NCBI GenBank assembly: GCA_963840225.1
Contig: CAWIYH010000002.1
Coordinates: 519,934-583,933 of the forward strand
Reading direction: 5' to 3'
DNA length: 64,000 nucleotides
From: an uncultured Acidobacteriota bacterium
Lineage (GTDB): Bacteria > Acidobacteriota > Vicinamibacteria > Vicinamibacterales > CAVVIG01
A model generated the notes under the pieces. The model was given only the letters and a program-made list of their open reading frames with translations, did not search any database and was not told where the DNA came from. Positions 2,987 through 57,144 of the stretch are shown here, piece after piece. How positions within the stretch are numbered: position 1 is the first letter of the stretch; every line of letters starts with the position of its first letter. A program made the translations under genes and the position numbers.

Positions 2987-3131
2987 CGCTCGAGCTGAGG
3001 GCGGACGATCGGGAGGTGCGTTTTCGCTGGCGGCCTCACTACAATAACAGCCACACCCATGAGCGACGAACACATCCCGGCGAGACGAACCGGCGCCGAC
3101 CGACTTCATTCGCGCCATCGTCCGCGACGAC

Positions 3132-16261: not shown

Positions 16262-16264
16262 CGC

Positions 16265-35106: not shown

Positions 35107-37017
<1,911 letters not shown>

Positions 37018-37322
37018 GCAGCCCGATTGTACCAACAGTCCCGGACCTCGTTAGGTAGTGTCCGGTTTCAGCCAGACCCGTTCAGCGCCACCGCCGGACG
37101 GCCCGCGGTGGCGGGACCGGACGGGCGACCGGGGCCGCGTCCGCGACCCCGGTTCGCAGGCCGGCGGACGCCGAGAGGAAGAACAGCACCACGAACGCGA
37201 GCACCTTGGGGGCGCCCGACACCGACAGCAGGAACGTCCACGGCGGTATTCGCGTGCCGTTCGCGCCGCGGGAGATGGTGCGGAACAGAGCGGTTGTCTT
37301 TTCCGGACCGCGCGGGGATCGG

Positions 37323-39380
37323 TTACTGCGTCTGGCCGCCTTTCGCCTTGAGGTACTTCGAGTACCACGCGATGTAGCGCTCGTACCGATCCTTCTGGAA
37401 ACTGGGGCGCCGGATGGCGTGGAACTCGCCCGGGTACACCACGAGCTCGGTCTGGCGTCCGAGGCGCTTCAGTCCCTGGTAGAGCTGCTCGCCGCCGATG
37501 ATCGGCACGTTGACGTCGGCGCTGCCGCCCATGACGAGCGTCGGCGTCACGATCTTGTCCATGCGGAAGAAGGGCGAGATCTTCATCCAGAGCTGCGCGT
37601 TGCGCCAGGGCAGCCCGAGCTCGCCCTCCCACTGCCGCTGGTAGTGGTCCGTGCCGTAGTTGGCCAGATAGTTGAATTCGCTCGCGCCCGACACGGCCGC
37701 TTTGAAGCGGTCGGTCCTGGAGATCACGTGATCGGTCAGAATGCCGCCGTAGCTCCAGCCGCCGACCCCGAGCCGGTCCGGATCGGCCACGCCCATGGCG
37801 ATCGCCGTGTCGACCGCCGCCATGACGTCGTCGAAGTCCTTGTTGCCCCAGTCGGCGAAGATCGCGCGGCTGAAGTCGCGGCCGTAGCCCGACGACCCGC
37901 GCGGGTTGGCAGCCACGACCGCGAATCCCTGCGCAGCGAGTAACTGCCACTCGAGCTCGAAGCCGGTCGAGAACTGGCTGACCGGACCGCCGTGGATGCG
38001 GAGGATCGTCGGCAGCTTGCGTCCCGCCGGCGCGTTCGGCGGCCGCGTGAGGAAGGCGTCGATCATGGTGCCGTCGGCGCTCTTCGCCTTGAAGCGCTCG
38101 ACCGGGCCGAGCGCGATCTTCGCCAGGAACTCGTCGTTGGTGTGCGTCAGGCGCACCGGTTCGGCGCCGCTTCGCGGTCCTCCCAGCAGATACACTTCCG
38201 CCGGACGCTGCGGCTGGCTGTCGAGAAACGCCATGTCGCCGTTCTTCGCAACGTCCAGCCGCTCCACGTCGTGCTCGCCGTCGAGGACGCGCGCGAGCGC
38301 GCCGCCCCCTGTCGGGATCCGGGCGATGTGCGTGTTGCCGCCCTCTTCGATGAGCGCGTAGACGGCGGAGCCGTCGGGCGCGAAGAACGGCCGATCGAAA
38401 TTGCGATCGACGGCCTGGGTGAGGATGCGCGGCGCGCCGCCGGCCACCGGGACGACGGCGATGTCGTTCGTGTCGTACCAGACGTCTTTGGGATCGCCCC
38501 CCTGGATGTAGGCAATCGACTTGCCGTCGGGGCTGAACGCCGGCGAGGCGTCGGCGACCGGCGAGGTGGTCACCCGCCGCGGCGTCGCGCCCGCCTTCGG
38601 CTCGACGACGAAGATGTCGGTGTTCTCGTTGCCGTCCGGGTTGTCGGTGCGGTTCGACGCGAACGCGATGAGCAATCCGTCCGGCGACCACACCGGCGGG
38701 CCGTCGTCATGTTTCGGGTCGGTCAGGATCTGCGTGTCGGTCTTCGTCGCGATGTCGAAGACGTGCAGATGCTGGCGCACGTCGTGGAGATAGCCGATGC
38801 CGTCCCGCATGAACTGCAGGCGATCGATGACGATCGGCTTCGGCTTCTTGTCGCCCTCGTCCTTGCCGTCCTTGTTCTCTTCCGGCTCGTTCGGATCCGG
38901 GTCGGACTCGATGAGCGCCAGCCTGCTGCTGTCGGGCGACCAGGCGAACGACGACACGCCGTTCTTGGAATCGGTGAGCCGCTCGGCGTCGCCGCCGCGG
39001 CGGTCCAGCCGGTACAGCTGCGTCTTCTTGTCGTCGCGCGCCGACAGGAACGCGAGGTACTTGCCGTCGGGACTCCACCGGGGCGCGGTCTCGGCCTTCT
39101 TGCCGGCGGTCAGCCTGACCGGCGTGCCACCGTCGGCCGGCACCATGTAGATGTCGGTGTCCGACTTGTCCGCCTTCTCGTCCATCGAGGAGACGGTGTA
39201 GGCAATCCAGGTTCCGTCAGGGCTGATGTGCGGGTCGCCCACGCCCTTCAGGGCGAAGATGTCGGCCGGCTGCAGCGGCCGGCGCTCCTGCGCCTGCGCC
39301 ACCCGCCCGGGCGCGCCCAGGCCGGACAACGCGAACACAACGCCGAACGCGAGCGCCCCCGCCGCGACACGTCTCGTCAT
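37323..39380 (-). CDS. S9-family serine peptidase (TolB-like beta-propeller plus prolyl oligopeptidase/acylaminoacyl-peptidase domain), secreted
   Basis: Signal peptide from ATG 39380. Repeated SPDG propeller motifs. Nucleophile elbow GGWSYGG. Confidence 0.88.
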   Translation of the reverse strand: MTRRVAAGALAFGVVFALSGLGAPGRVAQAQERRPLQPADIFALKGVGDPHISPDGTWIAYTVSSMDEKADKSDTDIYMVPADGGTPVRLTAGKKAETAPRWSPDGKYLAFLSARDDKKTQLYRLDRRGGDAERLTDSKNGVSSFAWSPDSSRLALIESDPDPNEPEENKDGKDEGDKKPKPIVIDRLQFMRDGIGYLHDVRQHLHVFDIATKTDTQILTDPKHDDGPPVWSPDGLLIAFASNRTDNPDGNENTDIFVVEPKAGATPRRVTTSPVADASPAFSPDGKSIAYIQGGDPKDVWYDTNDIAVVPVAGGAPRILTQAVDRNFDRPFFAPDGSAVYALIEEGGNTHIARIPTGGGALARVLDGEHDVERLDVAKNGDMAFLDSQPQRPAEVYLLGGPRSGAEPVRLTHTNDEFLAKIALGPVERFKAKSADGTMIDAFLTRPPNAPAGRKLPTILRIHGGPVSQFSTGFELEWQLLAAQGFAVVAANPRGSSGYGRDFSRAIFADWGNKDFDDVMAAVDTAIAMGVADPDRLGVGGWSYGGILTDHVISRTDRFKAAVSGASEFNYLANYGTDHYQRQWEGELGLPWRNAQLWMKISPFFRMDKIVTPTLVMGGSADVNVPIIGGEQLYQGLKRLGRQTELVVYPGEFHAIRRPSFQKDRYERYIAWYSKYLKAKGGQTQ

Positions 39381-39396
39381 GATGTCCTCTTCTTTA

Positions 39397-39554
39397 ACTT
39401 GCGGCGGGGCCCCACCCCCGCCGCGCGCTGACGCCGATGCCTTGCCTCGGAGAGTCATCGTCCTCGGCGCGGCATGGCCGCAGGCGCCGTCATCGTCTAC
39501 TTGCGGCGGGGCCCCACCCCCGCCGCGCGCTGACGCCGATGCCGCGCCTCGGCG
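39397..39554. repeat. Two direct copies (102-bp period) of an approximately 56-bp intergenic element containing a 9-bp GC hairpin
   Basis: ACTTGCGGCGGGGCCCCACCCCCGCCGCGCGCTGACGCCGATGCC occurs identically at 39397-39441 and 39499-39543, and similarity continues about 11 nt further. GCGGCGGGG / CCCCGCCGC form a perfect stem around a C-rich loop. Confidence 0.85.
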
Positions 39555-39563
39555 TGCCTGGAC

Positions 39564-41021
39564 CTACACGTTCCCGCTGTCGTCGGGATTCTCGACCGCC
39601 GCGGCCTTCTTGGACCGGGACGACCGGCGCGGGGTCGCCGCCTTGCGCACGGCGGCCTTCCGGGTGCCTCGCGGCGCCGACGCGGCGCCGGCCGATCCGG
39701 CTCGCGCCCGGCCCGCGGCCGCACGCGGCTTGCGCGGCCTCGTGCCGAGCAGTTCCGCCGTCGTGTCGACCGGCATCGGCTCGCGCGAGGCCGAGTCCTG
39801 CTCGGCCTCTTCGACCGGATGACGGACCGCCTCGCCCGGCTGCGTTTCAGCTGCCTCGCTCTCGACGTCCAGGGGCACGGCGACGGGCCCGGCCTGCGCG
39901 GTGCGCTGGAGGTTCTGGCCGGGGAACACGCGAAGGCCTCCACGGCGGTCGCGCTCCATGCGCACGAGGCCTTCGCGCTGGCAGGCCCGCAGCAGGTCCA
40001 TCAGGCCGCCGAATCCGTAGCGGCGCTCGTCGAACCCGCCGTCGGCGGCGCGGAGGATCTGCTTGACGTTCCGCAGATACATCGGCCATCGTGCGCCGCC
40101 GGCGGCCCCCAGGATCCGCCCGACACGCAGGACGCCCTCGGCGTTGTCGCCCACGGGCGGCAGGGGCTCCTGGGCGTCGGCGGCGGCCGGCTGCAGGGGT
40201 TCCTGCGGCTGCGGCGTGTCGCTGCCGGCGGGGGCCGCGTCGCGGACGCTGCCCTCGTCGAAGCTCTCGTTCAGCTCCACCATGACGCTCCTGCCGGCGT
40301 GCTTCAGCTGGACGAGGCCGGCCTTGGCGAGCTTCTCGACGAAGTCCAGGAACGAGCTGGCGCCGTAGTTCCGCTCCGAGAAGGTCGAGTCGAGCTGCAG
40401 CAGCGTGCTCTTCAGCAGCCCGGTCTGCGGGGACACCTCGCGGTCGGACAGGATCTTGAGAGCCCGGCGGACGATGGCGAATGCCTGGGCGATGGGGGCA
40501 GCGGCCGTGGGGACCGGCTGGCGTCCGCCCTTGACGACCGCGCCTCGCGAGCGGGTCAGGTTCTCGTAGGCGATGAACTCATGGCAGTTGCGCTGCAGGA
40601 TCACGCTCGTGAACCCGCGGCCGCCGACCACGAACACCTTCTTGTCGTACTGCTTCAGTTTTTCGACCAGCGACAGGAAGTCGCTGTCGCCGCCCACGAT
40701 CACGTAGGCGTTGATGTGCGGGTGGGTGAACGCCATTTCGAGCGCATCGAGCGCCAGGTTGATGTCGGCGCCGTTCTTGTCGCCGCCCGGGGTGAGGTTG
40801 CGCTGGACGAGCCTGATCGCGTGCTGCGTCAGGTGCCGGCTGTACTCGCCGGCGCGGGTCCAGTCGGCATAGGCGATCTTGGTGACGACCTCGCCGCGCT
40901 CCTTGATGGCATCCAGGATGGTGCCGACGTCGAAGTGTTCGTTGAGGGTGCTCTTGACGCCGATCTCGATGTTGTCGAAATCGACGAAAACAGCGATGTT
41001 GAGACGGTCTTGATGAGGCAA
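39564..41021 (-). CDS. NYN-domain (LabA/PIN-like RNase fold) protein with two OST-HTH/LOTUS domains and a basic tail
   Basis: IAVFVDFDNIEIG...YADW...GDKNGADINLALDALEMAF...YVIVGGDSDFLSLVEKLKQYDKKVFVVG is the NYN acidic core. Two ~70-aa segments are LOTUS-like (for example GLLKSTLLQLDSTFSERNYGASSFLDFVEKLAKAGLVQL). The C-terminus is an Arg/Lys/Ala-rich tail. Confidence 0.78.
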   Translation of the reverse strand: MPHQDRLNIAVFVDFDNIEIGVKSTLNEHFDVGTILDAIKERGEVVTKIAYADWTRAGEYSRHLTQHAIRLVQRNLTPGGDKNGADINLALDALEMAFTHPHINAYVIVGGDSDFLSLVEKLKQYDKKVFVVGGRGFTSVILQRNCHEFIAYENLTRSRGAVVKGGRQPVPTAAAPIAQAFAIVRRALKILSDREVSPQTGLLKSTLLQLDSTFSERNYGASSFLDFVEKLAKAGLVQLKHAGRSVMVELNESFDEGSVRDAAPAGSDTPQPQEPLQPAAADAQEPLPPVGDNAEGVLRVGRILGAAGGARWPMYLRNVKQILRAADGGFDERRYGFGGLMDLLRACQREGLVRMERDRRGGLRVFPGQNLQRTAQAGPVAVPLDVESEAAETQPGEAVRHPVEEAEQDSASREPMPVDTTAELLGTRPRKPRAAAGRARAGSAGAASAPRGTRKAAVRKAATPRRSSRSKKAAAVENPDDSGNV

Positions 41022-41247
41022 ATGGTCCTTCCCGATGTTGATGGGCAGATATGCGGAAGCAGATGGCGTCCGGCGCCATTGCGAACGGCTCAGCCGGGCT
41101 CACGCCGGGCGGGGCCGACACCATTATCCACCAGGAGCGCGCGCTTCGCCACCCATTCGTGCGGTCCGCCAGCCCGCGTCCGACTGGGTCATGGCGCGGG
41201 CCCTTCGTGAAGGAGCCGATGAGCGCGCGGTCGGGGCGTGATGATCC

Positions 41248-43698
<2,451 letters not shown>

Positions 43699-43795
43699 GT
43701 GGGGATTGTACCGTGAAGGGACCGGCGGGCCAGGCCGGGCGGGGAGGGGCCGGCGGGCGGGAAGGGCCGGCGCGATCCCCTCCCGCCCCAGGACC

Positions 43796-45976
43796 TTACT
43801 TGATGAACAGCATCTCGCGATAGGTCGCAAGCGGCCACGTCTCGTGCGGCATCACGACCTCGAGCCGATCGCCCGCCTCCCGGAGCGCGCCCATGGCGGG
43901 AATGACGACGTCGCGGAAGTGCCGGGCGTGCTGTTCCGCCGACCCGTTGTCGTCGTGGTCGAGCGCCGACTGGAGCTTGTCGGTGCGGCGACCGAGCTCG
44001 TCGACGAGCCTGGTCACCCTGTCGAGCGTCTTCTTCGACTCGGCCAATCGACCGCCCGCCGCCTTGACCGCGGCGACGCCCTGCGCCACCTGCTTCTGGT
44101 AGTCGAGCCCGGCCGGCAGGATGTAGCGGTTGGCCATCAGCACCATCAGCTGCCCTTCGACGTTGACCGTCTTGATGTACTGCTCGACCATCACCTCGTA
44201 GCGCGCGTGCAGCTCGCGCGCGTTGAGCACCTTGTACTTCTCGAAGAGGGCGATCGCCTCCTTCGACGTGAGCTGGGGCAGCGCGTCGATGGTGTTCTTG
44301 AGGTTCAGCAGGCCGCGCTTGGCCGCCTCCTTCTCCCACTCCTTCGAGTAGTTGTTGCCGTTGAAGACGATCCGCTTGTTCTCCTTGATTACCTTCGGCA
44401 GCAGCGCGGCGAGAGCCTGCTCGATGGACTTGCCCGCCTTGGTCGCCTTCTCCAGCTCCGTCGCCATGTAGTCGAGCGACTCGGTCACGGCGACGTTCAG
44501 CGCGATGTTCGGGTACGCGATGCTCTGGTTGGCCGACACGGCCCGGAACTCGAACTTGTTGCCGGTGAAGGCGAAGGGGCTCGTCCGATTGCGGTCGCCG
44601 GCGTCGCGCGGGAGCTTGGGCAGCGCCAGCACGCCGGTGTCGAGCTCGCCGCCGTGTCTGGTCGACCTTGCGCGCCCCTTCTCGATCTGCTCGAAGATGT
44701 CGGTCAACATGTCGCCAAGGAACACCGAGATGATCGCCGGCGGCGCCTCGTTCGCGCCGAGCCGGTGGTCGTTGCCGGCGCTCGCGATGGCGGCCCGCAG
44801 CAGCCCCTGCCAGTTGTTCACGGCCCGGATGACGGCCGTGCAGAAGACCAGGAACTGCATGTTGTCGTGCGGGTTCGCGCCCGGCGACAGCAGGTTGTGC
44901 CCCTCGTCGTCGCTCATCGACCAGTTCAGGTGCTTGCCAGACCCGTTGACGCCGGCGAACGGCTTCTCGTGGAGCAGACAGGCGAGACCGAACTTCGGCG
45001 CGGTGCGCTTGAGCGTCTCCATCATCATCATCTGATGATCGGTCGCCACGTTGGCGTTCTCGAACACCGGCGCGATCTGGTACTGGCTCGGCGCCACCTC
45101 GTTGTGCCGCGTCTTGACCGGCACGCCGACCTTGTACAGCTCGCCCTCGACCTCGGACATGAAGGCCATCACGCGATCGGGAATCGCCCCGAAGTACTGA
45201 TCTTCGAGCTCCTGGCCCTTGGGCGGGCGGGCGCCGAAGAGCGTGCGCCCGGCGTTGATGAGATCCGGGCGGGAGAGATAGAAGTAGCGGTCGATCAGGA
45301 AGTACTCCTGCTCGGGACCGCACGTGGTGATCACCCGCTCGGCGGTCGAGCCGAACAGCTTGAGGACCCGCACCGCCTGCCTGGACAGCGCCTCCATGGA
45401 GCGCAGGAGCGGCGTCTTCTTGTCGAGCGCCTCGCCGGTCCAGCTCACGAACGCCGTCGGGATGACCAGCGTCACCGAGTTCCCGCTCTTCAACAGCCAC
45501 GGAGGACTGGTCGGATCCCACGCCGTGTAGCCGCGGGCCTCGAAGGTGGACCGCATCCCGCCCGAGGGAAAGCTGGACGCGTCCGGCTCGCCCTTGATCA
45601 GCTCCTTGCCCGAGAACTCGGCCACCGCCTTGCCGTCGTTGGTCGGCGTGAGAAACGAGTCGTGCTTCTCGGCCGTGATGCCGGTCAGCGGCTGGAACCA
45701 GTGCGTGTAGTGCGTGGCGCCGTGCTCGACGGCCCATTCCTTCATCGCCGACGCCACGGCGTCGGCGACCGACAGATCGAGCGCCTCGCCGTGGGTGATG
45801 GTCCGCCGCAGGGCGTGGTAGACGGCCTTCGGCAGCCGCGCCTGCTGGACCTCGTCGTTGAACACCAGGCTGCCGAACGACTCGGTGGCGCGCATCGTCC
45901 GCGCCGGTTCCTTCGCCTCGTTCATCGACCAGCCGCGGATGGCGGTGATCGCCTCCCCCAGAACTGAGGAACCCAT
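43796..45976 (-). CDS. glnN: Type III glutamine synthetase
   Basis: 726 aa from ATG 45976 (RBS GGAAGAGAGG). N-terminal [20 protein letters not shown]..., then [11 protein letters not shown] and a long C-terminal extension typical of GSIII rather than GSI. Confidence 0.88.
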
Positions 45977-46308
45977 CGTACGCCTCTCTTCCTTATGCGC
46001 GTCCTTATGCGCGTCGGGCTCCACCCCCAACGCGACTGCCCAACTGACGCTCTCCGTCGGTTATCACCGCTCGCGGGCCCATCCCCGCTCGCACTCGCCC
46101 GCGGTCACGCCGAAACGCCCGGCTGTACCCTCACCGCCGTTCGGCGGGCACGCGCACGGCGCAGCATATCGCCGTCGCCGCGAGACGGAAATTGTCTCTC
46201 GTTTCGTGCATGGAATGCAATCAATTGGCAACTTTTGACGCTAGTTGGCTGAAATATTGCCGACGTGAACAGATATCGGAGCATAAAAGGCAATATCTCT
46301 GGATCGCT

Positions 46309-46944
46309 CTAGGCTGCGGGACCGGGCCAGCCCAGCAGGGCCAGGAACTCGGCCAGCACCATGGCCGTCGCGCCCCAGATTTCGGCGTCGGCGACACTGA
46401 ACAGCGGGATGGTGAGGGCGCGCCCGTCGCGCACCCGCTCCACGCGACCCAGCCGCTCCGGATCGATCAGCGCTTCGACCGCCACCTCGAGGATCCGCTC
46501 CACTTCTGAGTCGGCCGGCGAGAGGGCCGGCCGCTTCCCGGCGGCCGCGACGATCGGATGCAGGCGGAAGCCGCTCACGGGGATGTCGAGTGGCGTGAGC
46601 GCGCCGAGCACGCGAACCGAGCCCGGATCGAGTCCCACTTCTTCCTGCGCTTCGCGCAGCGCGGCCTGTTGGTAGGTCTCGCCCGGGTCGAGCACGCCTC
46701 CCGGCAGCGACACCTGCCCGCGGTGGCGCCCGAGCGTGTTCGCACGGAGCGTGAGGATGACGTGCGGGCGCCGCTCGATTGGAAAAAGAAGCAGTAGACC
46801 GGCTGCGCGCCGCACGCGCGCGGGGTTGAAGCCGGCCGGCCAGTCGCGCCGCGGCTGCGGCGCCATCAGCCACTGCGCGGAAGGGCCCGGCAAGGGGGCC
46901 GCGAACGCCGCCTCCAGTCGGCGGAGCGCGTCGTCGTATGTCAC
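46309..46944 (-). CDS. NUDIX hydrolase (CoA pyrophosphatase-like)
   Basis: Nudix box GGVLDPGETYQQAALREAQEEVG. GTG start at 46944. Confidence 0.85.
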   Translation of the reverse strand: MTYDDALRRLEAAFAAPLPGPSAQWLMAPQPRRDWPAGFNPARVRRAAGLLLLFPIERRPHVILTLRANTLGRHRGQVSLPGGVLDPGETYQQAALREAQEEVGLDPGSVRVLGALTPLDIPVSGFRLHPIVAAAGKRPALSPADSEVERILEVAVEALIDPERLGRVERVRDGRALTIPLFSVADAEIWGATAMVLAEFLALLGWPGPAA

Positions 46945-47289
46945 CGCCGGGTGCCGGGATCGAGGGACGTTCCGGGGCGCAGGACGTCGAGCGATCGACA
47001 GCCGATCGCCCCGTTCCGTTCCTCGGAAACGGCGACGCGCCCGTTGGCTGTTTGTATCGTCCGTGCAACGACGACGAGAGGAGAGACGATTTTCATGATG
47101 CGAAAGTCATTCGAGCGCCGCAACGATTCGGGGACCATCGGCGTCTAGCAATGATGGCAGCGGTCTGGCAACACGTCGGACGTCGGTGCCTCCGAGCGGC
47201 CGACCTCGATCCGCAATTTTGGAGTACAGCTGGCTGAGCCAGAAAACGTTCAGCTGACCGTCGGCCGGCGGGCGTCGTCCTTAATTAGA

Positions 47290-47883
47290 ATGACATGGAT
47301 CCGGGAGAACTGGTTGCGACTGCTGAAGCTGCTGCGGACGGTGCAGGCAACGGCCGGCGCGGTAATGATTGGCGGCGTGCGGGCGATCTTCGGCGGCGTC
47401 GGTGGTCGGATCGATCTGGCGCCTGGTGATCTCGCGCCCGACTTCGAGCTCGCCGGTTCCGACGGGCGGACCCACCGGCTGTCGACGCTGCGTGGCCGCA
47501 CGGTCGTCATCGCGTGGTTCCCCAAGGCGTTCACGGGCGGGTGAACGGCCGAGTGTCGATCGCTCGGATCGAGCGATGAAGACCTCGACCGGTTCGACGT
47601 GAAGTACTTCGCGGCGAGCACGGACGCGCCGGCGACGAATCGATCGTTTGCCGAGTCGCTCGCGCTCGATTATCCGATACTGAGCGATCCGGCCGGAGCC
47701 GTGGCGCGCGCGTATGGCGTCCTCGGGCGTGCCGGTTATGCGTCGCGCTGGACGTTCTACGTCGGGGCGGACGGACGCGTGGCCGACATCGACCGCCAGG
47801 TGGCGCCCGGATCGCACGGACCGGCGGTCGTCGAGAAACTGCGAGCGCTGGGAGTTCCCGAGGTTTCATCTCGGCAGGCCTGA
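47290..47883 (+). CDS. PrxQ/Bcp-type peroxiredoxin with in-frame TGA (47542-47544) at the peroxidatic position: candidate selenocysteine protein
   Basis: Track ORFs 47290-47544 and 47599-47883 are in the same frame and are separated only by one TGA. Read-through gives ...DLAPDFELAGSDGRTHRLSTLRGRTVVIAWFPKAFTGG[U]TAECRSLGSSDEDLDRFDVKYFAASTDAPATNRSFAESLALDYPILSDPAGAVARAYGV...RWTFYVGADGRV..., collinear with the AhpC/TSA fold. Confidence 0.7.
47559..47577 (+). promoter_or_regulatory. SECIS-like hairpin 15 nt downstream of the in-frame UGA
   Basis: ATCGCTC-GGATC-GAGCGAT: a perfect 7-bp stem with a G-rich 5-nt apical loop. An alternative overlapping hairpin is CCGAGTG-TCGAT-CGCTCGG at 47549-47567. 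Confidence 0.45.
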
Positions 47884-47934
47884 GGCGATCGGGTCTGCCC
47901 TCACAAGCTGGCCGCGTGGCGGCCAGGCTGGAGC

Positions 47935-50718
47935 GTGGCCATGGCACTGCTCGATCGTTTTCGCGCCCAATCCCGTCACAAGCACCCCGATCCGCTGGTC
48001 CGGCTCGAAGCGGTCGCCGAGGTCCCGATCGACGATCGTGACCTCATCGCGGCGATCGCCCGGGAGGACGAGGATCCACGCGTGCGCCGCGCCGCCGTCG
48101 CCAAGCTGCTCGATCCGGCGGCGCTCGCGAGCGTGGCGCGCGGGGACGCCGACGACGGCGTGCGGGCGCAGGCGGTCGCGATGCTTCGCGACATCGCGCT
48201 CGACGCCTTCGAGGGGCTCGGCGAAGCCGACAGCCTCGCTGCCCTCGAATCGCTGGATGAGGGGCGCGCGCTCGCGCAGGTGGCCAAGGAGGCCCCGCGG
48301 GAGGCGATCGCGATGGCGGCACTCGCGCGCGTGACCGACGGCCGCGCCCGGGCGGCGATCGCGCGGCACGCGGGGGCGGAAGTCGTGCGGCTGGCGGCGC
48401 TCTCGGGCGTCATGGAGCCGGGCGACGTCCTCGAGGTCGCGCTCAATTCAGAGTTCAAGGACGTGGCGCTCGCCGCCGTGGAGCGTCTGACCGAGCGCGC
48501 CGAGCTCGAGCAGACGGCGTCCCGCGCCAGGAACAAGAGCGCGTCGAAGCGGGCGCGGGCGATCCTGCGCGAGCAGGAGGAGCGCGCGCTGGCCGCCGCG
48601 GCGCCCGCGGCTCCCGATCCGATCGAGCTGGCGCGCGCCGAGCGCCTCCAGATCGTCCAGCGCGTCGAGGCCCTGGCGAACGCCGACCTGGTCGACGCCG
48701 CGGCGGCGGCGCTCGCCGAGGCCGACGCCGCCTGGGCGTCGATGGACGGCGAAGCCGACGCGCTGACGGCCGCTCGCTTTTCGACGGCAGTCGGCGTCGC
48801 GCGTGAGCGCGTGGCGGCGCTGCGCGACCGGGACGCGCGCGCGGAAGGGGCCGCCGAGCTGGCGCGCCGCCGCGACGAGGAACTGGCGGGCGAGCGCGCG
48901 CGGGCGACCGCGGAGGCCGAATCGGCGGCGCGCGCGGCCGCGGAAAAGGACCAGGAGCGGCGGCGGCTGCGGATGGAGGAGCTCGTGCCCGAAGCCGAAG
49001 CGGCCGCCGCCGACGAGGACCTCGCCTCCGCGCGCCGGCGGTTCGCCCTGGTCCGGCACGAGTGGCGCGACCTGGGCGCCGGTCCGGCGATTGATGCCGC
49101 CCTCGCCGAGCGGTACGCCGCCGCCGACGCGCGGCTGGCGGCGCGCGACACCGAGGCGCAGGACGCCGAGGCCCGCGCGCGGCGCGAGGGCCTGCACCGC
49201 ATGACGCAGCTCCTCGCCCGCATCGAACCGCTCGCCGCGCGGTCCGATCTCTCTCTGAAGGCGGGCGAGCGTGCGCTGCGCGACGCCCGCGCGGCGCTCG
49301 CCGACGTGCCGCCGCTCCCCTCCAAGCAGGACTTCGACGATGTCAGCCGACGCCTCAAGGAGGCGGTCTCCGCGCTGTCGCCGCGGGTCCAGGAGCTGCG
49401 TGATGCCGACGAATGGCGGCGCTTCGCCAACGTCGCGATCCAGGAGCGGCTCTGCGCCAAGATGGAGGCGCTCAAGACGGTTGAGGATCCCGAGGAGATC
49501 GCGCACCAGGTCCGTGACCTGCAGCAGCAGTGGCGGCAGGCGGCCGACGTGCCGCGCGCGCAGGCCGAGGCGCTCTGGCATCGCTTCAAGGCGGCGCACG
49601 ACCAGGTCTGGCCGCGCTGCGAAGCACACTTCTCGGCGGAGAACGAGTCGCGGCGCGCCAACCTCGCGGGCAAGCTCGCGCTGTGCGAGCGCGCCGAGGC
49701 GCTCGCCGACTCGAGCAACTGGATCCAGACCGCCGAAGCCATCAAGGCGCTCCAGGCTGAATGGAAGGCCATCGGGCCGGTGACGCGCGGCCAGGAGAAG
49801 GCGGTCTGGGAGCGGTTCCGCACCGCCTGCGATCGCTTCTTCACCCGTCGCCACGCCGACCTGGCGGACCGCAAGAAGGTGTGGGGCGAGAACATGGCCC
49901 GGAAGGTCGCGCTCTGCGAGCGTGCCGAGGCGCTCGCCGAGTCGACCGACTGGGACGCCGCCGCGGCCGAGCTCAAGCGGCTGCAGGCCGAGTGGAAGAC
50001 CATCGGCCCGGTCAAGAAGAGCCGCTCCGAGGCCATCTGGCAGCGCTTCCGGACCGGCTGCGACCGCTTCTTCTCCCGATACGCCCACCGCTACGACATC
50101 GCGCTCGCCGAGCGCATCGGCGCGCGCGAGTCCATCTGCGCCGAGCTCGAAGCGCTCGCCTCCGCCGAGAGCGCGGATCCGCCCGCCGACCTGCTCGCCC
50201 TCGTCCGCGGCATCCGCGCCCGCTGGCAGCAGCAGATCGCCGGCCGCGGCGTCGACCGCGACCACGCCGTCGCGCTCGACCAGCGCTTCGCCGACGCCTT
50301 CGCCCGCATCGTGTCGCGCTGGCCCGACGCCTTCGCCAACACCGATCTCGATCCCGACGCGAACCGCAAGCGGATGGAGACGCTGGTCCGGCGGATCGAG
50401 GAGCTCGCCGGCTCGCTGAGCCGGGCCCAGCCGGGGGGCGCCGACGAGTCACTCTCGCCGACGACGCGGCTGGCGGCGATGCTCAAGGAGGCGCTCGCCG
50501 CGAACACGATCGGCGGCAAGGCGGACGAGGACAGCCGCTGGCGCGCCGCTGCCGAGGACGTCCGCCAGGCGCAGGCGGCGCTCTCGCGCATCGGGCCGGT
50601 GCCCGACGCCGCGCGCCGCGCGCTGAGCGATCGGTTCCAGCGGGCGAGCCGCCGCATCATGGAGCGCGCCGGCGGCCCCGCCCGATCGGGCGCGCCGCGG
50701 CGGCCTACTGGATCTTGA
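47935..50718 (+). CDS. DUF349-repeat protein with HEAT-like N-terminus
   Basis: Several repeats of the pattern W(R/K)..G......E.(L/A)W.RF+.ACD.FF.R, for example LQAEWKAIGPVTRGQEKAVWERFRTACDRFFTRR. Confidence 0.75.
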   Translation: MAMALLDRFRAQSRHKHPDPLVRLEAVAEVPIDDRDLIAAIAREDEDPRVRRAAVAKLLDPAALASVARGDADDGVRAQAVAMLRDIALDAFEGLGEADSLAALESLDEGRALAQVAKEAPREAIAMAALARVTDGRARAAIARHAGAEVVRLAALSGVMEPGDVLEVALNSEFKDVALAAVERLTERAELEQTASRARNKSASKRARAILREQEERALAAAAPAAPDPIELARAERLQIVQRVEALANADLVDAAAAALAEADAAWASMDGEADALTAARFSTAVGVARERVAALRDRDARAEGAAELARRRDEELAGERARATAEAESAARAAAEKDQERRRLRMEELVPEAEAAAADEDLASARRRFALVRHEWRDLGAGPAIDAALAERYAAADARLAARDTEAQDAEARARREGLHRMTQLLARIEPLAARSDLSLKAGERALRDARAALADVPPLPSKQDFDDVSRRLKEAVSALSPRVQELRDADEWRRFANVAIQERLCAKMEALKTVEDPEEIAHQVRDLQQQWRQAADVPRAQAEALWHRFKAAHDQVWPRCEAHFSAENESRRANLAGKLALCERAEALADSSNWIQTAEAIKALQAEWKAIGPVTRGQEKAVWERFRTACDRFFTRRHADLADRKKVWGENMARKVALCERAEALAESTDWDAAAAELKRLQAEWKTIGPVKKSRSEAIWQRFRTGCDRFFSRYAHRYDIALAERIGARESICAELEALASAESADPPADLLALVRGIRARWQQQIAGRGVDRDHAVALDQRFADAFARIVSRWPDAFANTDLDPDANRKRMETLVRRIEELAGSLSRAQPGGADESLSPTTRLAAMLKEALAANTIGGKADEDSRWRAAAEDVRQAQAALSRIGPVPDAARRALSDRFQRASRRIMERAGGPARSGAPRRPTGS

Positions 50719-51502
50719 GGAGCTCGACGTCGAAGACGAGCATGCCGTACGGCGGGCTCTCGCCCTTGTAGGCGAGCTTCTCGGGAATCCAGAAGCGCAC
50801 CTTCTCGCCCTCGACCATCAGCTGGAGGCCTTCGGTCCATCCGGGAATGACGCCGTCGACCGAAAACGACGCCGTGCCGCCGTGGACGACCGAGCTGTCG
50901 AACATCTTGCCGTCGGTCGTCCAGCCGGTGTAAGCCACGGTCACCATGCTGCTGCTCTTCGGATGGCGGCCGCCGACCCCTTCCTTCAGCACCTTGTACG
51001 CCAGTCCGCTGTGCGTGCGGGTCGCGTCGGCGGGCGGCGCCTTCACGTCGCCCGGCGCGCGGTTGGGAATGGCCAGCAGCTCGAGATCGAAGACGAGCGT
51101 GCCCTTCGGCTTGCCGTCCTGCCCCTTGTAGGCGAGCGACTCGGGAACCCAGATCCGGCGCTTCTCGCCCGGGACCATCAGCTGCACGCCTTCGCTGAAT
51201 CCCGGAATGACGCGGTTGACGGGAAAGGTCGACGGCGTCCCCCGGACGATCGTGCTGTCGAACATCCTGCCGTCGGCGGTCCAGCCCGTGTAGTTGAGCG
51301 TCACCAGGTCGGCGGGGGTGGGGTGGTCGCTCCCGCTGCCCGGCGCCAGTACCTTCGTCACGAGCCCGTCGGCGGTCTTGGTGGCGTCGGCGGGTGGCGC
51401 GGCCACATCCGGCGGCGCGGGCACGGTCTTGGGCGGCGGCGTCTGAGCGGACGACACGGCGGCGACGAACACGATCGCGAGCGCGGACAGGAAGACACGC
51501 AT
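50705..51502 (-). CDS. Periplasmic FKBP-type peptidyl-prolyl isomerase with two FKBP domains
   Basis: Two copies of the FKBP core: VTLNYTGWTADGRMFDS...VIPGFSEGVQLMVPGEKRRIWVP and VTVAYTGWTTDGKMFDS...VIPGWTEGLQLMVEGEKVRFWIP. The signal peptide runs from ATG 51502. ATG 51526 is an alternative start. Confidence 0.88.
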   Translation of the reverse strand: MRVFLSALAIVFVAAVSSAQTPPPKTVPAPPDVAAPPADATKTADGLVTKVLAPGSGSDHPTPADLVTLNYTGWTADGRMFDSTIVRGTPSTFPVNRVIPGFSEGVQLMVPGEKRRIWVPESLAYKGQDGKPKGTLVFDLELLAIPNRAPGDVKAPPADATRTHSGLAYKVLKEGVGGRHPKSSSMVTVAYTGWTTDGKMFDSSVVHGGTASFSVDGVIPGWTEGLQLMVEGEKVRFWIPEKLAYKGESPPYGMLVFDVELLKIQ

Positions 51503-51736
51503 CAGGCCAATCCTTTCCCCGGGCATTCTACCTTCGAGCGCCGTGCGCCTCGAATCCCCCAGTCAAAAGAGCCCCAATCACAAATCCCCAATCACAATCA
51601 GCAATCATCAATTTCATGGTATCGTTCCTCCGTACCTAGCGGGGTCCGCCGTTCTCAGCCAGGACCCCTACCCGCGCCCTCGCCCTCGCCGAGCGCCCGG
51701 ATGTAGGCATCACGCGAGCACCCTCCGAGGTGTGCG

Positions 51737-52138
51737 ATGCCCACGTTCACGAAGCTCACCCCCAATCTCGTCGTCGCCGATGTCGAGCGCAGCCTCGCGT
51801 TCTATGCCGATCTGCTCGGATTCTCGCGCGCCCTCCACGTGCCCGACGAGTCGCCGTACGTCTTTGCGTCGGTCACCAGCGGGCCGCTGGAGATCTTCCT
51901 GAACCTGACCGAGGCGGTGATCAAGGACCATCCGGAATGGGCGGGGAAGACCGCCGCGTCGCCGGGCCACTCGCTGTTCATCGAGGTGGAAGGCGTCGAC
52001 GCGCTCTACGAGCGCCTCGAGGCGCGCACGAAGGTCGTGATGCCCATCGTGACGCAGTGGTACGGCATGCGGGAGTTCGGCATCGAGGATCCCGACGGCC
52101 ACGTGATCCTGTTCGCCGAGCGGGTGACGCCGGCCTGA
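51737..52138 (+). CDS. VOC-family (glyoxalase/bleomycin-resistance fold) protein
   Basis: LTPNLVVADVERSLAFYADLLGF ... YGMREFGIEDPDGHVILF. Confidence 0.8.
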   Translation: MPTFTKLTPNLVVADVERSLAFYADLLGFSRALHVPDESPYVFASVTSGPLEIFLNLTEAVIKDHPEWAGKTAASPGHSLFIEVEGVDALYERLEARTKVVMPIVTQWYGMREFGIEDPDGHVILFAERVTPA

Positions 52139-52144
52139 ACGGCG

Positions 52145-54958
52145 TCAGCGCCGATCCTTCGCCAGCTGATCGAGCTTCTGCTTCAGGGCTTCGAGCTTCT
52201 GCCCGGCCTCGCCGAGCTTGCCTTCGGCCGTCAGCCGCTGGTAGTCGGCGAGGTCACGGGCGGCCCCGGCGATCAGCGCGCGGGTCGCCTCGGAGGCAGC
52301 CGGGGCCTGCGGCGGTCCCGCCGGCGGCGCGCCCGCGGCCGCGCCGCCGGCGGGCGCCGCGGCCTGCGCGGCCTCTGCTCCGAAGAGCTGCGTCAACGCC
52401 GACGAGAAGCTCGGGGCGTACACGAGGCGATCCTGCGTGGCGAGCACGACCAGCCTGAGCTCCGGCATCGGGCTGCGCTCGGCCTGCAGGTAGATGGGCT
52501 CGGCGTAGAGCAGCGACCTGCCGATCGGGATGACGAGCAGGTTGCCGCGCCGCACGTGCGATCCCTGCTGATTCCAGAGCGACAACTGTCCGGACAGCTG
52601 CGCATTCTGGTCAATCCGCGCCTCCACCTGCAGCGGGCCGTCGATGAGCCGGGTCTTCGGGAAGTCGTACACGACCGCCGTGCCGTAGTTCGGCTCGTCG
52701 CTGCGGCCGGCGATCCATCCGATGAGGTTGTTGCGGTTGGCCGGCGTGAAGGGCAGGATTTCCACATACTCGAGCGTCCGTTCGCCGGGCAGCGTCATCA
52801 GGACGAAGTTCGGCTCCATCGGCTCGGTGGCCTGCTCGCCGCGCGGCGTCAGGCCGACCTCGCTCGCCACCGTCCACAGATCCTCGCGGTTGTAGAACGT
52901 CTCGGGGTTGGTCATGTGATACAGGCCGTACACGTCCGCCTGCACCTTCAGCAGCAGCTCGGGGTACCGCACGTGCCGGCGCAATTCCGGCGACATCGCC
53001 GAAACGTCCTTGAACAGGGTGGGGAAGATGGCCCGGTAGGCCGCCACGATCGGATCGGCGGGATCGAAGACATAGAACGTCGTCGTGCCGTTGTAGGCGT
53101 CGATGACGACCTTCACGCTGTTCCGCAGGTAGTTGACGCGATCGCGATCGAGCTGATAGTGGCGCGCGTACGGATAGCTGTCGGACGTCATGAAGCCGTC
53201 CATGATCCAGAACAGCCGTCCTTCGTCGCTGACGACGATGTACGGATCGGGGTCGAAGGTGATGAAGGGAGCGAGCTGACCGACGCGGTTCCGCACGTCG
53301 CGCCGCATCAGCAGCCGGCTGTCGGCGCTCACGTCGTCGCTGAACGGGAGCTTGGCCAGGTCGCCGCGGTCGAGCGCGATGATCAGGCGCCGGAAGAAGC
53401 CGCCCAGGACGATGCCGCCGGTGCCGTCGTAGGCGGTGAAGCTGTTGTTCTCGCCGTGCGGATAGTTGAACTCCTGCTGACGCGTCTTGACGTACACGTC
53501 GGTGTTGGTGAGCTCACCGAAGTAGATCTCGGGACGCGTCACCTTCAGGTCCGGCGCGGCGCTTTCCACCGGCATGTTCGACAGCAGGAGGTCGGGCAGT
53601 CCCTCCGGCGTGAAGCCGTTCACCGGATTCATCGTGACGCCGTAGCCGTGCGTGTAGATCAGCTTCTCGTTGATCCAGTTGCGGCTGCTCTCGGGCAGCT
53701 TGGCGACGCTCAGCTCCCGCGCGGCGAGCATCATCTGGCGCATCTGCCCGCCGACCTCGTACCGGTCGATGTCGATGTCCGGGAAGTCGTAGTAGGTGCG
53801 GATCTCCTGGACCTGCCGGAGGGTATCCTGGAGCGCGCGCCAGTCCCACAGCCGGATGTTCTGGATGGTCGCCTGGTTCCGCGTCGCGTCGATCCCGGCG
53901 ACGCCTCCCTCCGCGGGGAAGTCGTGCCGCGTGACCCGGTCGAGCGCGAAGGCGGCCCGGGTGGCCTGGATGTTGTTCGCGATGAACGGCTTCTCGCGCA
54001 CCAGCTCGTTCGGCTTGACGATGAAGCTGGTCACGTACCAGGACGAGAGGCCGACGGCGAGATAGCAGACCGCGGCGGGAACGATGGCCGCGGCGAGCCA
54101 GCGCAGCCTGGGCGGCGACACCACGTTGACGAGCGCGATCAGCGCGCCGAGGACGAGCGCGCCCGCGACGATCAGCATGCCGGGGATCGTGATGTGCGCG
54201 TCGGCATAGGTGACGCCGGCGAAGATGGTGTGGTCGTCGAACAGCAGGTCGAACCGGCCCAGATAGACGCGGACGGCCAGGACGAGCAGCAGCACCGCGA
54301 AGGCGATCGACAGCGCCCGCCACGTCGTGCGCAGCTCGCTCTCCGCGCGCCGCCGCGTCAGTACCTGCGATCCGCCCGCCACCATGACGAAGAACACACC
54401 GATTACGCAGGCGATCACGGCAAGCGTCATGATCCAGCCCGACAGGAGCTCCCACGCCGGCAGCGTGAAGAGATAGAACGCGATCGGCCGATGGAACACG
54501 GCATCCGCCGCGCCCGCAGCAGGCGGCGCGTACCAGTACAACGCGAGCACCGGCCACTCGGCCATCAGCCCGGCGCCCGTGGCGAGCGCGATGACCGCCG
54601 CGCCCCCGAGCGCAATCGCGCGAAGCGCCGGCTCGAGCGGCAGCCTGAGCGGCTGGCCGTTGATGAGGACGATGCGCGTCGTCGCGAGCTCGGCGAGCCG
54701 CGCGGGCTTCATGGCGAGGAAGGACCCGTAGAGGGCCAGGAAGGTGACGCCGGCGAAGCCGGAGAAGACCAGAGACTGGAGCTTCAGCGTCTTCCAGAAG
54801 ACGTCGAGGTAGCCGAGCGACTCGAACCAGAGCGCGTCGACGTAGTAGGAGAGCGCGGTCCCGCCGGCCAGGAGGGCGAAGGCGACGAGGGCGAAGAGGA
54901 AGACCAGAGCGCCCCGTCGGGGCGGCCGCGGCGGCGGCCAGTCGATCGTTTCAGGCAT
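52145..54958 (-). CDS. UPF0182-family large membrane protein
   Basis: From ATG 54958. About 7 N-terminal TM helices, YYVDALWFESLGYLDVFWKTL, and a large extracytoplasmic domain ending in a coiled-coil tail. Confidence 0.82.
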   Translation of the reverse strand: MPETIDWPPPRPPRRGALVFLFALVAFALLAGGTALSYYVDALWFESLGYLDVFWKTLKLQSLVFSGFAGVTFLALYGSFLAMKPARLAELATTRIVLINGQPLRLPLEPALRAIALGGAAVIALATGAGLMAEWPVLALYWYAPPAAGAADAVFHRPIAFYLFTLPAWELLSGWIMTLAVIACVIGVFFVMVAGGSQVLTRRRAESELRTTWRALSIAFAVLLLVLAVRVYLGRFDLLFDDHTIFAGVTYADAHITIPGMLIVAGALVLGALIALVNVVSPPRLRWLAAAIVPAAVCYLAVGLSSWYVTSFIVKPNELVREKPFIANNIQATRAAFALDRVTRHDFPAEGGVAGIDATRNQATIQNIRLWDWRALQDTLRQVQEIRTYYDFPDIDIDRYEVGGQMRQMMLAARELSVAKLPESSRNWINEKLIYTHGYGVTMNPVNGFTPEGLPDLLLSNMPVESAAPDLKVTRPEIYFGELTNTDVYVKTRQQEFNYPHGENNSFTAYDGTGGIVLGGFFRRLIIALDRGDLAKLPFSDDVSADSRLLMRRDVRNRVGQLAPFITFDPDPYIVVSDEGRLFWIMDGFMTSDSYPYARHYQLDRDRVNYLRNSVKVVIDAYNGTTTFYVFDPADPIVAAYRAIFPTLFKDVSAMSPELRRHVRYPELLLKVQADVYGLYHMTNPETFYNREDLWTVASEVGLTPRGEQATEPMEPNFVLMTLPGERTLEYVEILPFTPANRNNLIGWIAGRSDEPNYGTAVVYDFPKTRLIDGPLQVEARIDQNAQLSGQLSLWNQQGSHVRRGNLLVIPIGRSLLYAEPIYLQAERSPMPELRLVVLATQDRLVYAPSFSSALTQLFGAEAAQAAAPAGGAAAGAPPAGPPQAPAASEATRALIAGAARDLADYQRLTAEGKLGEAGQKLEALKQKLDQLAKDRR

Positions 54959-54974
54959 GGTTGGAATCGTTTCG

Positions 54975-57144
54975 CTAACCCCTCGCGCTCGATCGAGAGG
55001 ACCCGGGCAGCCCCTTCGGCACCATGGGCATCGATCGGATTCGGACGCCGGTCGCATGGAAGATGGCGTTGCCGATGGCCGGCGCGACGCCCACAATCGG
55101 CGTCTCGCCGGCGCCGGCCGGCCGGATGTCGCGCCGGTCCACCAGCACCACCTCGATGTCCGGGAGGTCGCTGAATCGCGGCACCCGGTAGCTCTCGAAG
55201 CGTCCGTTGGTCAGACGTCCCTCGTCGAAGTCGATGGCTTCGAACAACGCGCCGCCCAGCCCCTGGACGACGGACCCGGACACCTGGTTGTTCAGGCCGT
55301 CGGGGTTGACGATGGCTCCGCATTCGAAGGCGACGACGATGCGGCGGACCTTCACGCGCCCCTCCGGGCGATCCACCTGGACCTCGGCGCAGAGCGCCGT
55401 GTAGCCGCCCTTCTCGACCCCGCAGGCGAGGCCGCGGCCCCGCACCACGTCGTCGGCTGCGGCGGGCTGCGGCCATCCGAAACGCCGCGCCGCCGCCTCG
55501 AGCACGGCGGCAAGACGTTCGTCCTTCAGGTTCTTCAATCGGAACGCGAGCGGATCCATCCCGACCGCATGGGCGAGGTCGTCCATGTGCGACTCGCGCG
55601 CGAAGTGATTGGCCGTGGCGGCGAGCCCCCGATACGACCCCTGTCGCAGGGGCGACTGCGCCGGGTGGAACTCGACGTGCTGGTTGGGCACCTCGTACGG
55701 CGTCTGGATGCCCGACGGCCCCGAGTTGTAGTTGTGGTGCTCCCAGGCGGTGAGCGTGCCGTCCTTGCGCGCGCCGCCCCGCACCTCGATGACGCCCGCC
55801 GGGCGGAAGTAGGCCCAGGCGAACTCCTCGGCGCGGGACCACACCAGCTTGACCGGACGGTTCGCCGCGCGAGCAAGGCGCGCGGCCTCGACGGCCGCGT
55901 CTCCGGTGTGCTTGCCTCCGTAGGCCGACCCGGTGTCGGGAACCACGACGCGCACGCGATCGGCCGGGAGATGAAACGCCTGCATCAGCTCCTGCTGCAC
56001 ACCGAAGGGACGCTGGGTGCCGGTCCACACGGTCAGCCCGCCGTCATGCCACTCGGCGACCGCGGCGCGCGGCTCGAGCGGCGCATGCGCGATGTAGGCG
56101 ATGGTGTACTCGGCGGACAGCTTCGCGTCGGCGGCGGCGAGCCCTTCGTCCACCGATCCCCTCGTCGTGGGACGGCTTCGTCCCCCGGGCTCCGTGTGGG
56201 TCTTCAGAATCCGCGAACAGGGTGCGTGCGGAAGCGCCGGACCCCGCGGTCCATTCGGCCTTGATGGCGGCGGCCGCGTCATCGGCGCTCGCGGCGGACG
56301 GCGCGGCGACGCCGACGAAGTCGTTGTCGTGGACCACTGTCACGCCGGCCAGTGCCTCGGCGGCGGCCGTATCCAGGCTCTTGAGGCCCGCGCCGTACGC
56401 GGGCGGACGCACGATCCGTGCGTGGAGCATGCCCGGACGCACGACGTCGGCGGCATAGCGGTGGCGTCCCGTGACGAAGGCGCGGCCGTCGACCTTGGGG
56501 GCCGGCGCGCCCGCGATCGTCCAGTCCTTCGGCGCGCGCAGCGCCGTGTCCTCGCTCACCGTCGCCACCAGCGGTGCGCCGGCCATCAGTGCGCCGAACC
56601 CGAGCGATTGTCCCGACGGTCCGTGAATCAATCCGTCCTTGACGGTCACCGACGCGGCGTCGGCCTTCCAGCGCGCCCGCGCCCGCTCGACGAGGACGCC
56701 GCGGGCGGCGGCGGCGACCTTGCGCAGCTGCAGGTTCATGGTCGGGGTCGTGCGGCTGCCGAACGTGCCCATGTCGAAGGGCGTCGCGGCGGTGTCGGCC
56801 ATGACGAGGGTGATGGCCGCAACCGGCGCGCCGAGCTCCTCGGCCACGGCCTGGGTCAGCGACGTGCGGATGTTCTGGCCGATCTCGGTCTTGCCGGTGA
56901 ACACGGTCACCTGGCCGTCCTCGGCGACGTGCAGCCAGGCGTTGACGGCGGCTGGCATCCTGTCGCCGGCGAACGCCGCCCGACCTGATTCCTGCGCGCC
57001 CGCGAGTCGGGGCGAGACGAGCAGCACGACGAGGCCGGTGCCGAACGTCTTCAGGAAGTCGCGCCGATCGAACGCGAAATGGTACCGCGCGTCGGCGAAC
57101 AGCTCGTACCGCTCGAGCTCGATGACCTCGACCGCATCACGCAC
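54975..57144 (-). pseudogene. Molybdopterin-binding large subunit of an IorB/aldehyde-oxidase-type dehydrogenase; apparent 1-nt insertion at about 56211
   Basis: The N-terminal part is in ORF 56044-57264, from GTG 57144, with Tat motif FDRRDFLKTFG. The C-terminal part is in ORF 54975-56282 (...AEYTIAYIAHAPLEP...GGKHTG...). 2170 nt minus 1 nt = 723 codons. Confidence 0.85.

Follow-up and report, generated by a model that had tools for sequence, protein, structure and literature searches.

An in-frame UGA at the peroxidatic position of a probable selenocysteine-containing BCP/PrxQ-like peroxiredoxin from an uncultured Vicinamibacterales bacterium

We analyzed a 64,000-nt stretch of contig CAWIYH010000002.1 (positions 519,934 to 583,933 of the forward strand, assembly GCA_963840225.1), which belongs to an uncultured acidobacterium of the order Vicinamibacterales. 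The whole stretch is called the window, and all coordinates refer to it unless another locus is named. Positions 47290-47883 on the plus strand very probably represent one intact gene for a selenocysteine (Sec) containing peroxiredoxin (Prx) of the BCP/PrxQ-AhpE-like type, in which a UGA codon takes the place of the codon for the peroxidatic cysteine. We infer actual Sec insertion at UGA 47542-47544 from the architecture of the gene and from comparative signatures in its relatives.

Structure of the interrupted gene

The reading frame starting with the ATG at 47290 is interrupted by one TGA (47542-47544) and is then open until the TGA at 47881-47883. The first open reading frame (ORF), 47290-47544, encodes 84 aa, and the joined length amounts to 84 + 1 + 112 = 197 codons. 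The second ORF, 47599-47883, is the GTG-initiated tail of the same frame (offset 309 nt, i.e., 103 codons). Downstream of the internal TGA neither a frameshift nor an additional stop occurs, the GC content at third codon positions (GC3) is coding-like with 0.76, and the 112 codons are without signs of decay. The following features define the gene and its recoded codon.

47290..47883, plus strand: predicted selenoprotein coding sequence, 197 codons with Sec at codon 85, plus terminal TGA; AhpC/TSA (BCP/PrxQ-like) peroxiredoxin
47542..47544, plus strand: in-frame UGA, presumably read as Sec85, the peroxidatic residue of the motif PxxxTxxU (P78, T82, U85)

The initial annotation of this locus had described two same-frame ORFs which are parted by a single TGA, give 197 residues when joined and do not form a full domain on their own, and it had expected standard pipelines to report them as fragments. 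Re-derivation of the frame, a Pfam AhpC-TSA match that runs across the stop and the gene calls in the Logan assembly of ERR11718635, where the peroxiredoxin gene is split into fragments of 84 aa and 94 aa, agree with this description. Instead of two fragments or a pseudogene, the locus would be annotated as one 197-residue selenoprotein with a transl_except for Sec at 47542-47544. The same re-annotation would apply to hundreds of orthologues in metagenome-assembled genomes (MAGs) of Acidobacteriota, Planctomycetota, Verrucomicrobiota and others.

Protein family and active site

Residues 45-166 of the joined protein match the Pfam family AhpC-TSA (PF00578) from position 1 to position 123 of the 124-position profile (E = 1.4e-27). 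The score of 96.5 bits exceeds the gathering cutoff of 26, and a full thioredoxin-fold domain is present. A search of a protein collection returned 2953 homologues at E <= 0.001, the best of which are about 60% identical, comprise 180-198 residues and match over the full length. Of the solved structures, BCP-type peroxiredoxins (5epf, 2ywn/4g2e) and the mycobacterial AhpE (1xvw) match the window protein best.

In an alignment of 30 sequences (A1), the column of the stop is occupied by Cys in all 29 full-length homologues and lies within the invariant block WFPKAFTGG-C-TAEC. The residue aligned to it in the solved peroxiredoxins 5epf and 2ywn is the peroxidatic Cys, and the active-site motif of the window protein, P78-K-A-F-T82-G-G-U85, follows the pattern PxxxTxxC(U). 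The proposal that the UGA stands at the peroxidatic-Cys position of a BCP/PrxQ-like peroxiredoxin is thereby supported by both alignments. Two further residues are of interest for catalysis.

47746..47748, plus strand: Arg153 codon (CGC), conserved active-site Arg (SRWTF), invariant in A1 and aligned with Arg in the 5epf sequence 'KRTTF'
47554..47556, plus strand: Cys89 codon (TGT), candidate resolving Cys at Sec +4, invariant in A1

A candidate resolving Cys four residues after the UGA had been part of the first description as well. Its position holds, but the resolving role is not supported in the same way. The sequence U-T-A-E-C puts the Cys at +4, which differs from the CxxxxC pattern of BCP/PrxQ with the resolving Cys at +5, and C89 aligns one residue ahead of the BCP +5 Cys of 5epf. 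In Sec forms of other clades the Cys at +4 is replaced, namely by Leu in Myxococcota and by Gly in Actinomycetota. As Cys89 is not at the BCP +5 position and is missing in some Sec-form clades, its function as resolving Cys is plausible only.

Sec forms without Cys at +4 (U-T-A-E-L or U-T-x-E-G) were found in MAGs of Myxococcota or deltaproteobacteria (loci L031, L046, L049, L050, L058 and L073) and in MAGs of Actinomycetota (L008, L028, L035, L082 and L114). These proteins would have to act as 1-Sec peroxiredoxins.

The scores for NCBIfam equivalog models stay below the respective cutoffs, with 70.6 bits for NF006960 (cutoff 140) and 58.2 bits for NF053650 (cutoff 260). The PrxU model NF040737 yields 42.5 bits, its cutoff being 270. 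Judged by these profile scores, the predicted protein is BCP/PrxQ-like and stands outside the BCP/PrxQ equivalogs. Family knowledge would predict a peroxide-reducing activity.

Recurrence of the TGA codon across bacteria

For identification of further TGA-containing genes, the degenerate pattern TGGTTYCCNAARGCNTTYACNNNNGGNTGAAC (W-F-P-K-A-F-T-x-G-TGA-T) was scanned in two collections, the GTDB species-representative genomes and the JGI metagenome contigs. Each of them gave at least 120 matches, so that at least 240 independent loci carry TGA at the peroxidatic column. The genome matches listed are MAGs of Acidobacteriota (many of them Vicinamibacterales), Planctomycetota, Verrucomicrobiota, Gammaproteobacteria, Myxococcota and Actinomycetota. 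In nearly all TGA loci listed, the frame is open for about 105-115 further codons and the sequence is conserved (…TAECKSLRESG…FAESL…YPILSDP…). Comparison with orthologues, which the initial annotation had named as a check, thus gave the expected pattern: homologues carry Cys or TGA at this column, and in nearly all TGA loci listed conservation persists past the stop. The recurrence of the TGA together with the downstream conservation excludes a private sequencing error or a pseudogene as explanation for the family. In terms of aligned sequences, the alternation of TGA and Cys at one column which is conserved on both sides is the classic signature of a Sec/Cys pair.

For the window gene itself, a sequencing or assembly error would imply a wrong consensus base in a codon that is really TGC or TGT. 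TGA and TGC are only one base apart, and the source, apparently a contig of more than 1 Mb, is possibly a long-read assembly. However, the Logan assembly of ERR11718635 (L248) is 99.97% identical to window positions 45707-48620 over 2914 nt and carries the identical TGA, and its gene calls, too, are 84 aa and 94 aa long. The same TGA in an independent assembly argues against a consensus error, and such an error would need to recur at at least 240 other loci. We consider this explanation to be highly improbable.

A SECIS-type hairpin follows the UGA

Directly downstream of the UGA, the transcript is predicted to form a stem-loop of the type known as bacterial selenocysteine insertion sequence (SECIS, or bSECIS for the bacterial form).

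47559..47577, plus strand: putative SECIS upper stem-loop with a 7-bp stem (AUCGCUC/GAGCGAU) and a 5-nt apical loop (GGAUC)
47542..47596, plus strand: predicted extended lower SECIS helix which includes the UGA (single-sequence prediction only)

Published bSECIS criteria (PMC13188914, Fig. 2A) comprise a loop of 3-9 nt at a distance of 16-37 nt from the UGA, a stem of 4-16 bp, a G in the first two loop positions and a minimum free energy (MFE) of at most -7.5 kcal/mol. The window hairpin agrees with every one of them: its stem has 7 bp, its loop reads GGAUC, the spacing from UGA to loop is 21 nt, and the 19-nt hairpin has an MFE of -10.3 kcal/mol. The 62 nt from the UGA onward fold with an MFE of -27.4 kcal/mol. 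Sequence and coordinates of the hairpin were given correctly in the first description, whereas its distance to the UGA is 14 nt rather than 15, a trivial difference. The resemblance to an fdhF-type bacterial SECIS, which had been suggested at the same time, is borne out by the full agreement with the published consensus and by covariation in the family.

Of 229 unique TGA sequences in the family, 197 have their best downstream hairpin placed such that the loop begins at offset 24-25 from the UGA, and the stems are mostly 7-8 bp long. A G is present in the first two loop positions in 206 of the 222 sequences having a hairpin. The family consensus is G-UCGCUC-[CGUGA]-GAGCGG-C, and the window hairpin lies in the same register, with offsets 17-23 pairing with offsets 29-35. 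For the analysis of covariation, 107 distinct sequences aligned without gaps (A2) were compared with 500 shuffles. Paired cells account for 89.6% of the alignment versus 75.9% in the shuffles, and double-change cells number 83 versus 19 expected from the shuffles, with compensatory changes in 5 of the 7 pairs. None of the 500 shuffles matches the observed values, and all slid registers fall to 29-65% pairing. An example is the third position of a Leu codon (C/G), which changes together with the third position of a Glu/Asp codon on the opposite arm (G/C).

Sec forms, Cys forms and the possibility of a nonsense mutation

The genes flanking the peroxiredoxin gene are shared with many of its relatives.

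43796-46060, minus strand: type III glutamine synthetase (GS-III), part of the conserved neighbourhood GS-III / NUDIX / Prx / DUF349
46309..46944, minus strand: divergent NUDIX hydrolase gene (Pfam NUDIX, E = 4.4e-15), found beside Sec-form and Cys-form orthologues; context only
47935..50718, plus strand: gene for a DUF349 repeat protein of 927 aa (Pfam DUF349, E = 1.1e-71), found downstream of Sec-form and Cys-form orthologues

At least 13 TGA loci share this neighbourhood, each with one to three flanking genes depending on the reach of the contig. Among them are a Vicinamibacterales MAG (L072) and two 'Acidobacteria gp6' MAGs (L074 and L081), and the glutamine synthetases of the syntenic TGA loci are up to 88% identical. 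The shared neighbourhood shows that true orthologues of the window gene use TGA, and it assigns the window to subdivision 6 of the Acidobacteriota. In this syntenic group at least 13 Sec loci stand against 6 sampled Cys loci.

Several observations weigh against Sec insertion in the window gene. The five closest Cys-form orthologues, which are syntenic (L243-L247), still form 6, 7, 6, 7 and 5 pairs, respectively, out of the 7 in the hairpin; in this clade the hairpin alone can therefore not separate a live Sec codon from a fresh change of TGC to TGA. Even the nearest relatives of the window protein are not very close, with no more than about 70% identity, and its raw identity to the nearest Cys forms and to the nearest Sec forms is alike (about 0.66-0.70), i.e., it is equidistant to both. 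Taken by itself, the hairpin is statistically unremarkable: a 70-nt single-sequence fold has z = -1.9 and is equalled by 10 of 200 shuffles, so that its significance derives only from the comparative data. The hairpin has no match in Rfam, although the Rfam results included no match to any bacterial SECIS model either. Finally, the 64-kb window, which is a small part of the genome, contains no selA, selB or selD (tblastn with queries from E. coli and from the acidobacterial locus L084), no tRNA (ARAGORN) and no RNA family at the Rfam gathering threshold, including tRNA-Sec.

Two of the approaches tried were of limited use. Ranking of the Sec-form and Cys-form neighbours by raw identity was uninformative, and with permissive settings, Rfam produced nothing but chance matches to miRNA and snoRNA families (E > 1) in 47400-47750.

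The Cys forms were also used as a hairpin-negative control. The more distant Cys orthologues L249 and L250 retain 3 of the 7 pairs, while the Sec forms average 6.5 of 7; chance pairing would be about 2.6 of 7 by our own rough estimate. The control partly failed, as the closest Cys forms keep the hairpin and only the more distant ones lose it. As far as the alignments indicate, the hairpin is tied to the UGA over evolutionary time, and recently converted Cys alleles still bear it. Its loss in Cys orthologues looks like the 'fossil SECIS' decay that would follow a conversion from Sec to Cys.

These data bear on the possibility that the window gene is a Cys form with a leftover SECIS-like hairpin, in which a recent nonsense mutation from TGC to TGA has left an inactive fragment of 84 residues. 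With 5-7 of 7 pairs kept in the closest Cys orthologues (L243-L247), a hairpin would be expected in this case anyway, and no Sec machinery is encoded within the 64-kb window. Sec and Cys forms also interleave: in a neighbour-joining tree of the clade, based on 153 sequences (37 Sec and 116 Cys; 24% Sec), the Fitch minimum is 13 state changes between Sec and Cys, so that the tree requires at least 13 switches in the clade. In the same tree, however, the nearest neighbours of the window protein are mostly Sec forms (8 of 12), and with at least 13 loci compared with 6 sampled Cys loci, Sec alleles make up a large share of the syntenic orthologues. A nonsense mutation would furthermore require one specific substitution at one codon of 197, whereas the downstream 112 codons are undecayed and the hairpin is perfect with 7 of 7 pairs. 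We regard a recent nonsense mutation as improbable and a functional Sec codon as the favoured explanation.

A more far-reaching idea is a frequent and reversible toggling between Sec and Cys by single-base changes. Recently switched Cys alleles would keep the intact hairpin (5-7 of 7 pairs), which would decay only later (3 of 7), and would thereby be 'SECIS-ready'; the seleno-peroxidases concerned, from bacteria of soil and water, would mostly bear signal peptides. From the sequence comparisons at hand this is possible but rather doubtful. If true, Cys alleles could regain Sec by one mutation, perhaps tracking the availability of selenium in soil. It would also mean that a family of seleno-peroxidases which is for the most part exported (periplasmic), and common among aerobic bacteria of soil and water, is fragmented by the gene calls examined.

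Selenocysteine machinery and usage of UGA

A link between the peroxiredoxin gene and the Sec machinery was found in another acidobacterial locus, L084 (CADEDC010000036.1, uncultured Acidobacteria RBC058), where selA-selB-selD is located about 1.2 kb upstream of the TGA-containing Prx gene.

L084:1-5200, all on the same strand: selA (partial) 1-474, selB 525-2438, selD 2630-3634; TGA of the Prx gene at 4849

The SelD frame of L084 has an in-frame stop (…AAG-stop-AAK…) at the position of E. coli Cys17, a known Sec site. The SelD of L084 is therefore probably itself a selenoprotein. A local ARAGORN search gave no tRNA-Sec in the 240 fetched TGA loci.

UGA is reassigned in some bacterial lineages. 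A decoding of UGA 47542-47544 other than by Sec could be a genome-wide reassignment (to Trp or Gly) or a SECIS-independent read-through with insertion of Cys or Trp. However, TGA ends 18 of the 37 coding-like ORFs of the window, including the peroxiredoxin gene. As it is the normal stop for these ORFs, UGA is not reassigned in the genome of the window. In addition, the UGA is found exactly at the column of the redox-active Cys and together with a covarying hairpin of the SECIS type, which is the signature of Sec. Decoding of this codon by anything other than Sec has, in our view, hardly any probability. The organism is marked as a probable user of selenocysteine, and the window gene adds to the indications that Acidobacteriota of soils commonly possess Sec-peroxiredoxins.

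Proposed mechanism

Following the established bacterial pathway, the host, an acidobacterium of subdivision 6 (Vicinamibacteria), would decode UGA 47542-47544 with the help of SelB, which would deliver the Sec-tRNA(Sec). The hairpin formed by the mRNA at 47559-47577 would attract SelB, acting as a bacterial SECIS within the coding sequence 21 nt downstream of the UGA. In the resulting protein, Sec85 would replace the peroxidatic Cys, with Thr82 and Arg153 as presumed catalytic partners according to family knowledge. Peroxide reduction would proceed via a selenenic-acid intermediate, whose resolution may fall to Cys89 (+4) or, directly, to a thioredoxin-like reductant. Both this reductant and the localization of the window peroxiredoxin are conjectural.

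N-terminal extension and variation among Sec forms

The AhpC-TSA domain of the window protein is preceded by an N-terminal extension.

47290..47409, plus strand: N-terminal extension of about 40 residues (LLRTVQATAGAVMIGGVRAIFGGVGG), weakly hydrophobic and conserved among homologues of the clade

The maximum Kyte-Doolittle average over 17 residues is 1.46 in this region. The extension may serve as a signal anchor, and its weak hydrophobicity suggests a membrane-anchored or exported protein.

Most Sec forms of other phyla carry classical signal peptides (e.g., MNKTLRRLLLGLGLGTLCGLAQA), among them L005, L006, L011, L017, L031, L050 and others. These signal peptides suggest an exported peroxidase. 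In the Actinomycetota Sec forms L008 and L028, no signal peptide was found in the short upstream frame recovered. The Sec forms L012, L015, L047, L093 and L125 contain some 22 extra residues, inserted a few codons past the SECIS region (…SLRVSVIDDPLSVTMLGGKEVNVAPRAAGSGLDKYNV…). L012, L047 and L093 belong to Planctomycetota MAGs, and the insertion is missing in other clades. Two TGA-peroxiredoxin genes (L054 and L059) are located about 8.5 Mb apart on the 10.2 Mb chromosome OZ253507.1 of Candidatus Marinacidobacterales.

Comparison with known systems

Sec-containing Prx (PF00578/COG1225, TxxU) have been catalogued since 2001-2005 and count among those selenoprotein families of bacteria that are most abundant and have been known for the longest time (PMC1088965, PMC2398784, PMC1794560). 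In GOS, 253 Sec-Prx genes were counted (PMC2398784), and Sec-Prx was found in 78 sequenced bacteria (PMC5029168). Conversions between Sec and Cys in Prx were already analyzed in 2006 (PMC1794560). Through PrxU of Eubacterium acidaminophilum, Prx is an experimentally validated selenoprotein family according to PMC13188914. The statement made at the outset that Prx-like selenoproteins are known in bacteria is thus well covered by the catalogued families (PMC1088965, PMC2398784, PMC1794560).

The catalogued Sec-Prx share with the window protein the Pfam domain, the Sec in the peroxidatic position of PxxxTxxU and widespread Cys homologues. As in the window, their SECIS lies inside the ORF right after the UGA, and repeated Sec/Cys exchanges are documented for them. 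There is no difference of kind: the window protein stands out as a Vicinamibacteria-type member with a Cys at +4 and about 40 additional residues at the N-terminus. PrxU of Eubacterium acidaminophilum (NF040737) is thioredoxin-dependent and carries Sec in place of the peroxidatic Cys, as proposed here for the window protein, but belongs to a different Prx subfamily (42.5 vs. 270 bits). With BCP/PrxQ (E. coli Bcp, NF006960; 5epf, 2ywn and 3drn) and AhpE (1xvw), the window protein shares the aligned active-site residues Pro, Thr, Cys(Sec) and Arg. It differs from them by a Sec instead of the Cys, by its N-terminal extension and by the location of the second Cys at +4, which in BCP is found at +5.

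The SECIS of E. coli fdhF, described by the bSECIS model of Zhang and Gladyshev as given in PMC13188914, is likewise a stem-loop directly 3' of the UGA within the ORF. The primary sequence of the window hairpin is unrelated to it, and binding of SelB to the window hairpin is predicted only. The loop in the window reads GGA, whereas its own Prx family has G-U. Since the window protein scores below the PrxU and Bcp equivalog cutoffs and yet has the defining features of Sec-Prx, it would be an unannotated member of the known Sec-Prx class. It represents no new mechanism, as Sec-Prx with a SECIS inside the ORF have been known for two decades.

Other stop codons and surrounding genes in the window

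A scan of the whole window for TGA codons flanked by coding-like GC3 on both sides revealed no other convincing candidate. The TGA at 9940 (plus strand) lies between two high-GC3 segments of 65 and 173 codons in one frame, and the flanking translations are of low complexity; it is probably the start region of a gene and not a recoding site. Two pairs of abutting same-frame ORFs on the minus strand were rejected. The pair at 39563/39564 is an ordinary gene end with TAG, and the pair at 16264/16265 is an ordinary gene end with TGA, followed by a new ATG. The latter is part of the region 13598-17866 (minus strand), where ORFs of 534 and 889 codons abut. The first of them ends with …DPMTALRME-TGA and the ATG of the next follows 4 nt on; they appear to be tandem genes without a recoded stop.

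The peroxiredoxin gene has housekeeping surroundings, none of them related to selenium. In 35107-46060 (minus strand) and 50705-55210 they comprise a gyrB-like gene (35107-37050), a gyrA-like gene (41248-43851) and the GS-III gene (43796-46060), together with genes for an S9 peptidase, a NYN/OST-HTH protein, an FKBP isomerase, a glyoxalase-family protein and a UPF0182 protein.

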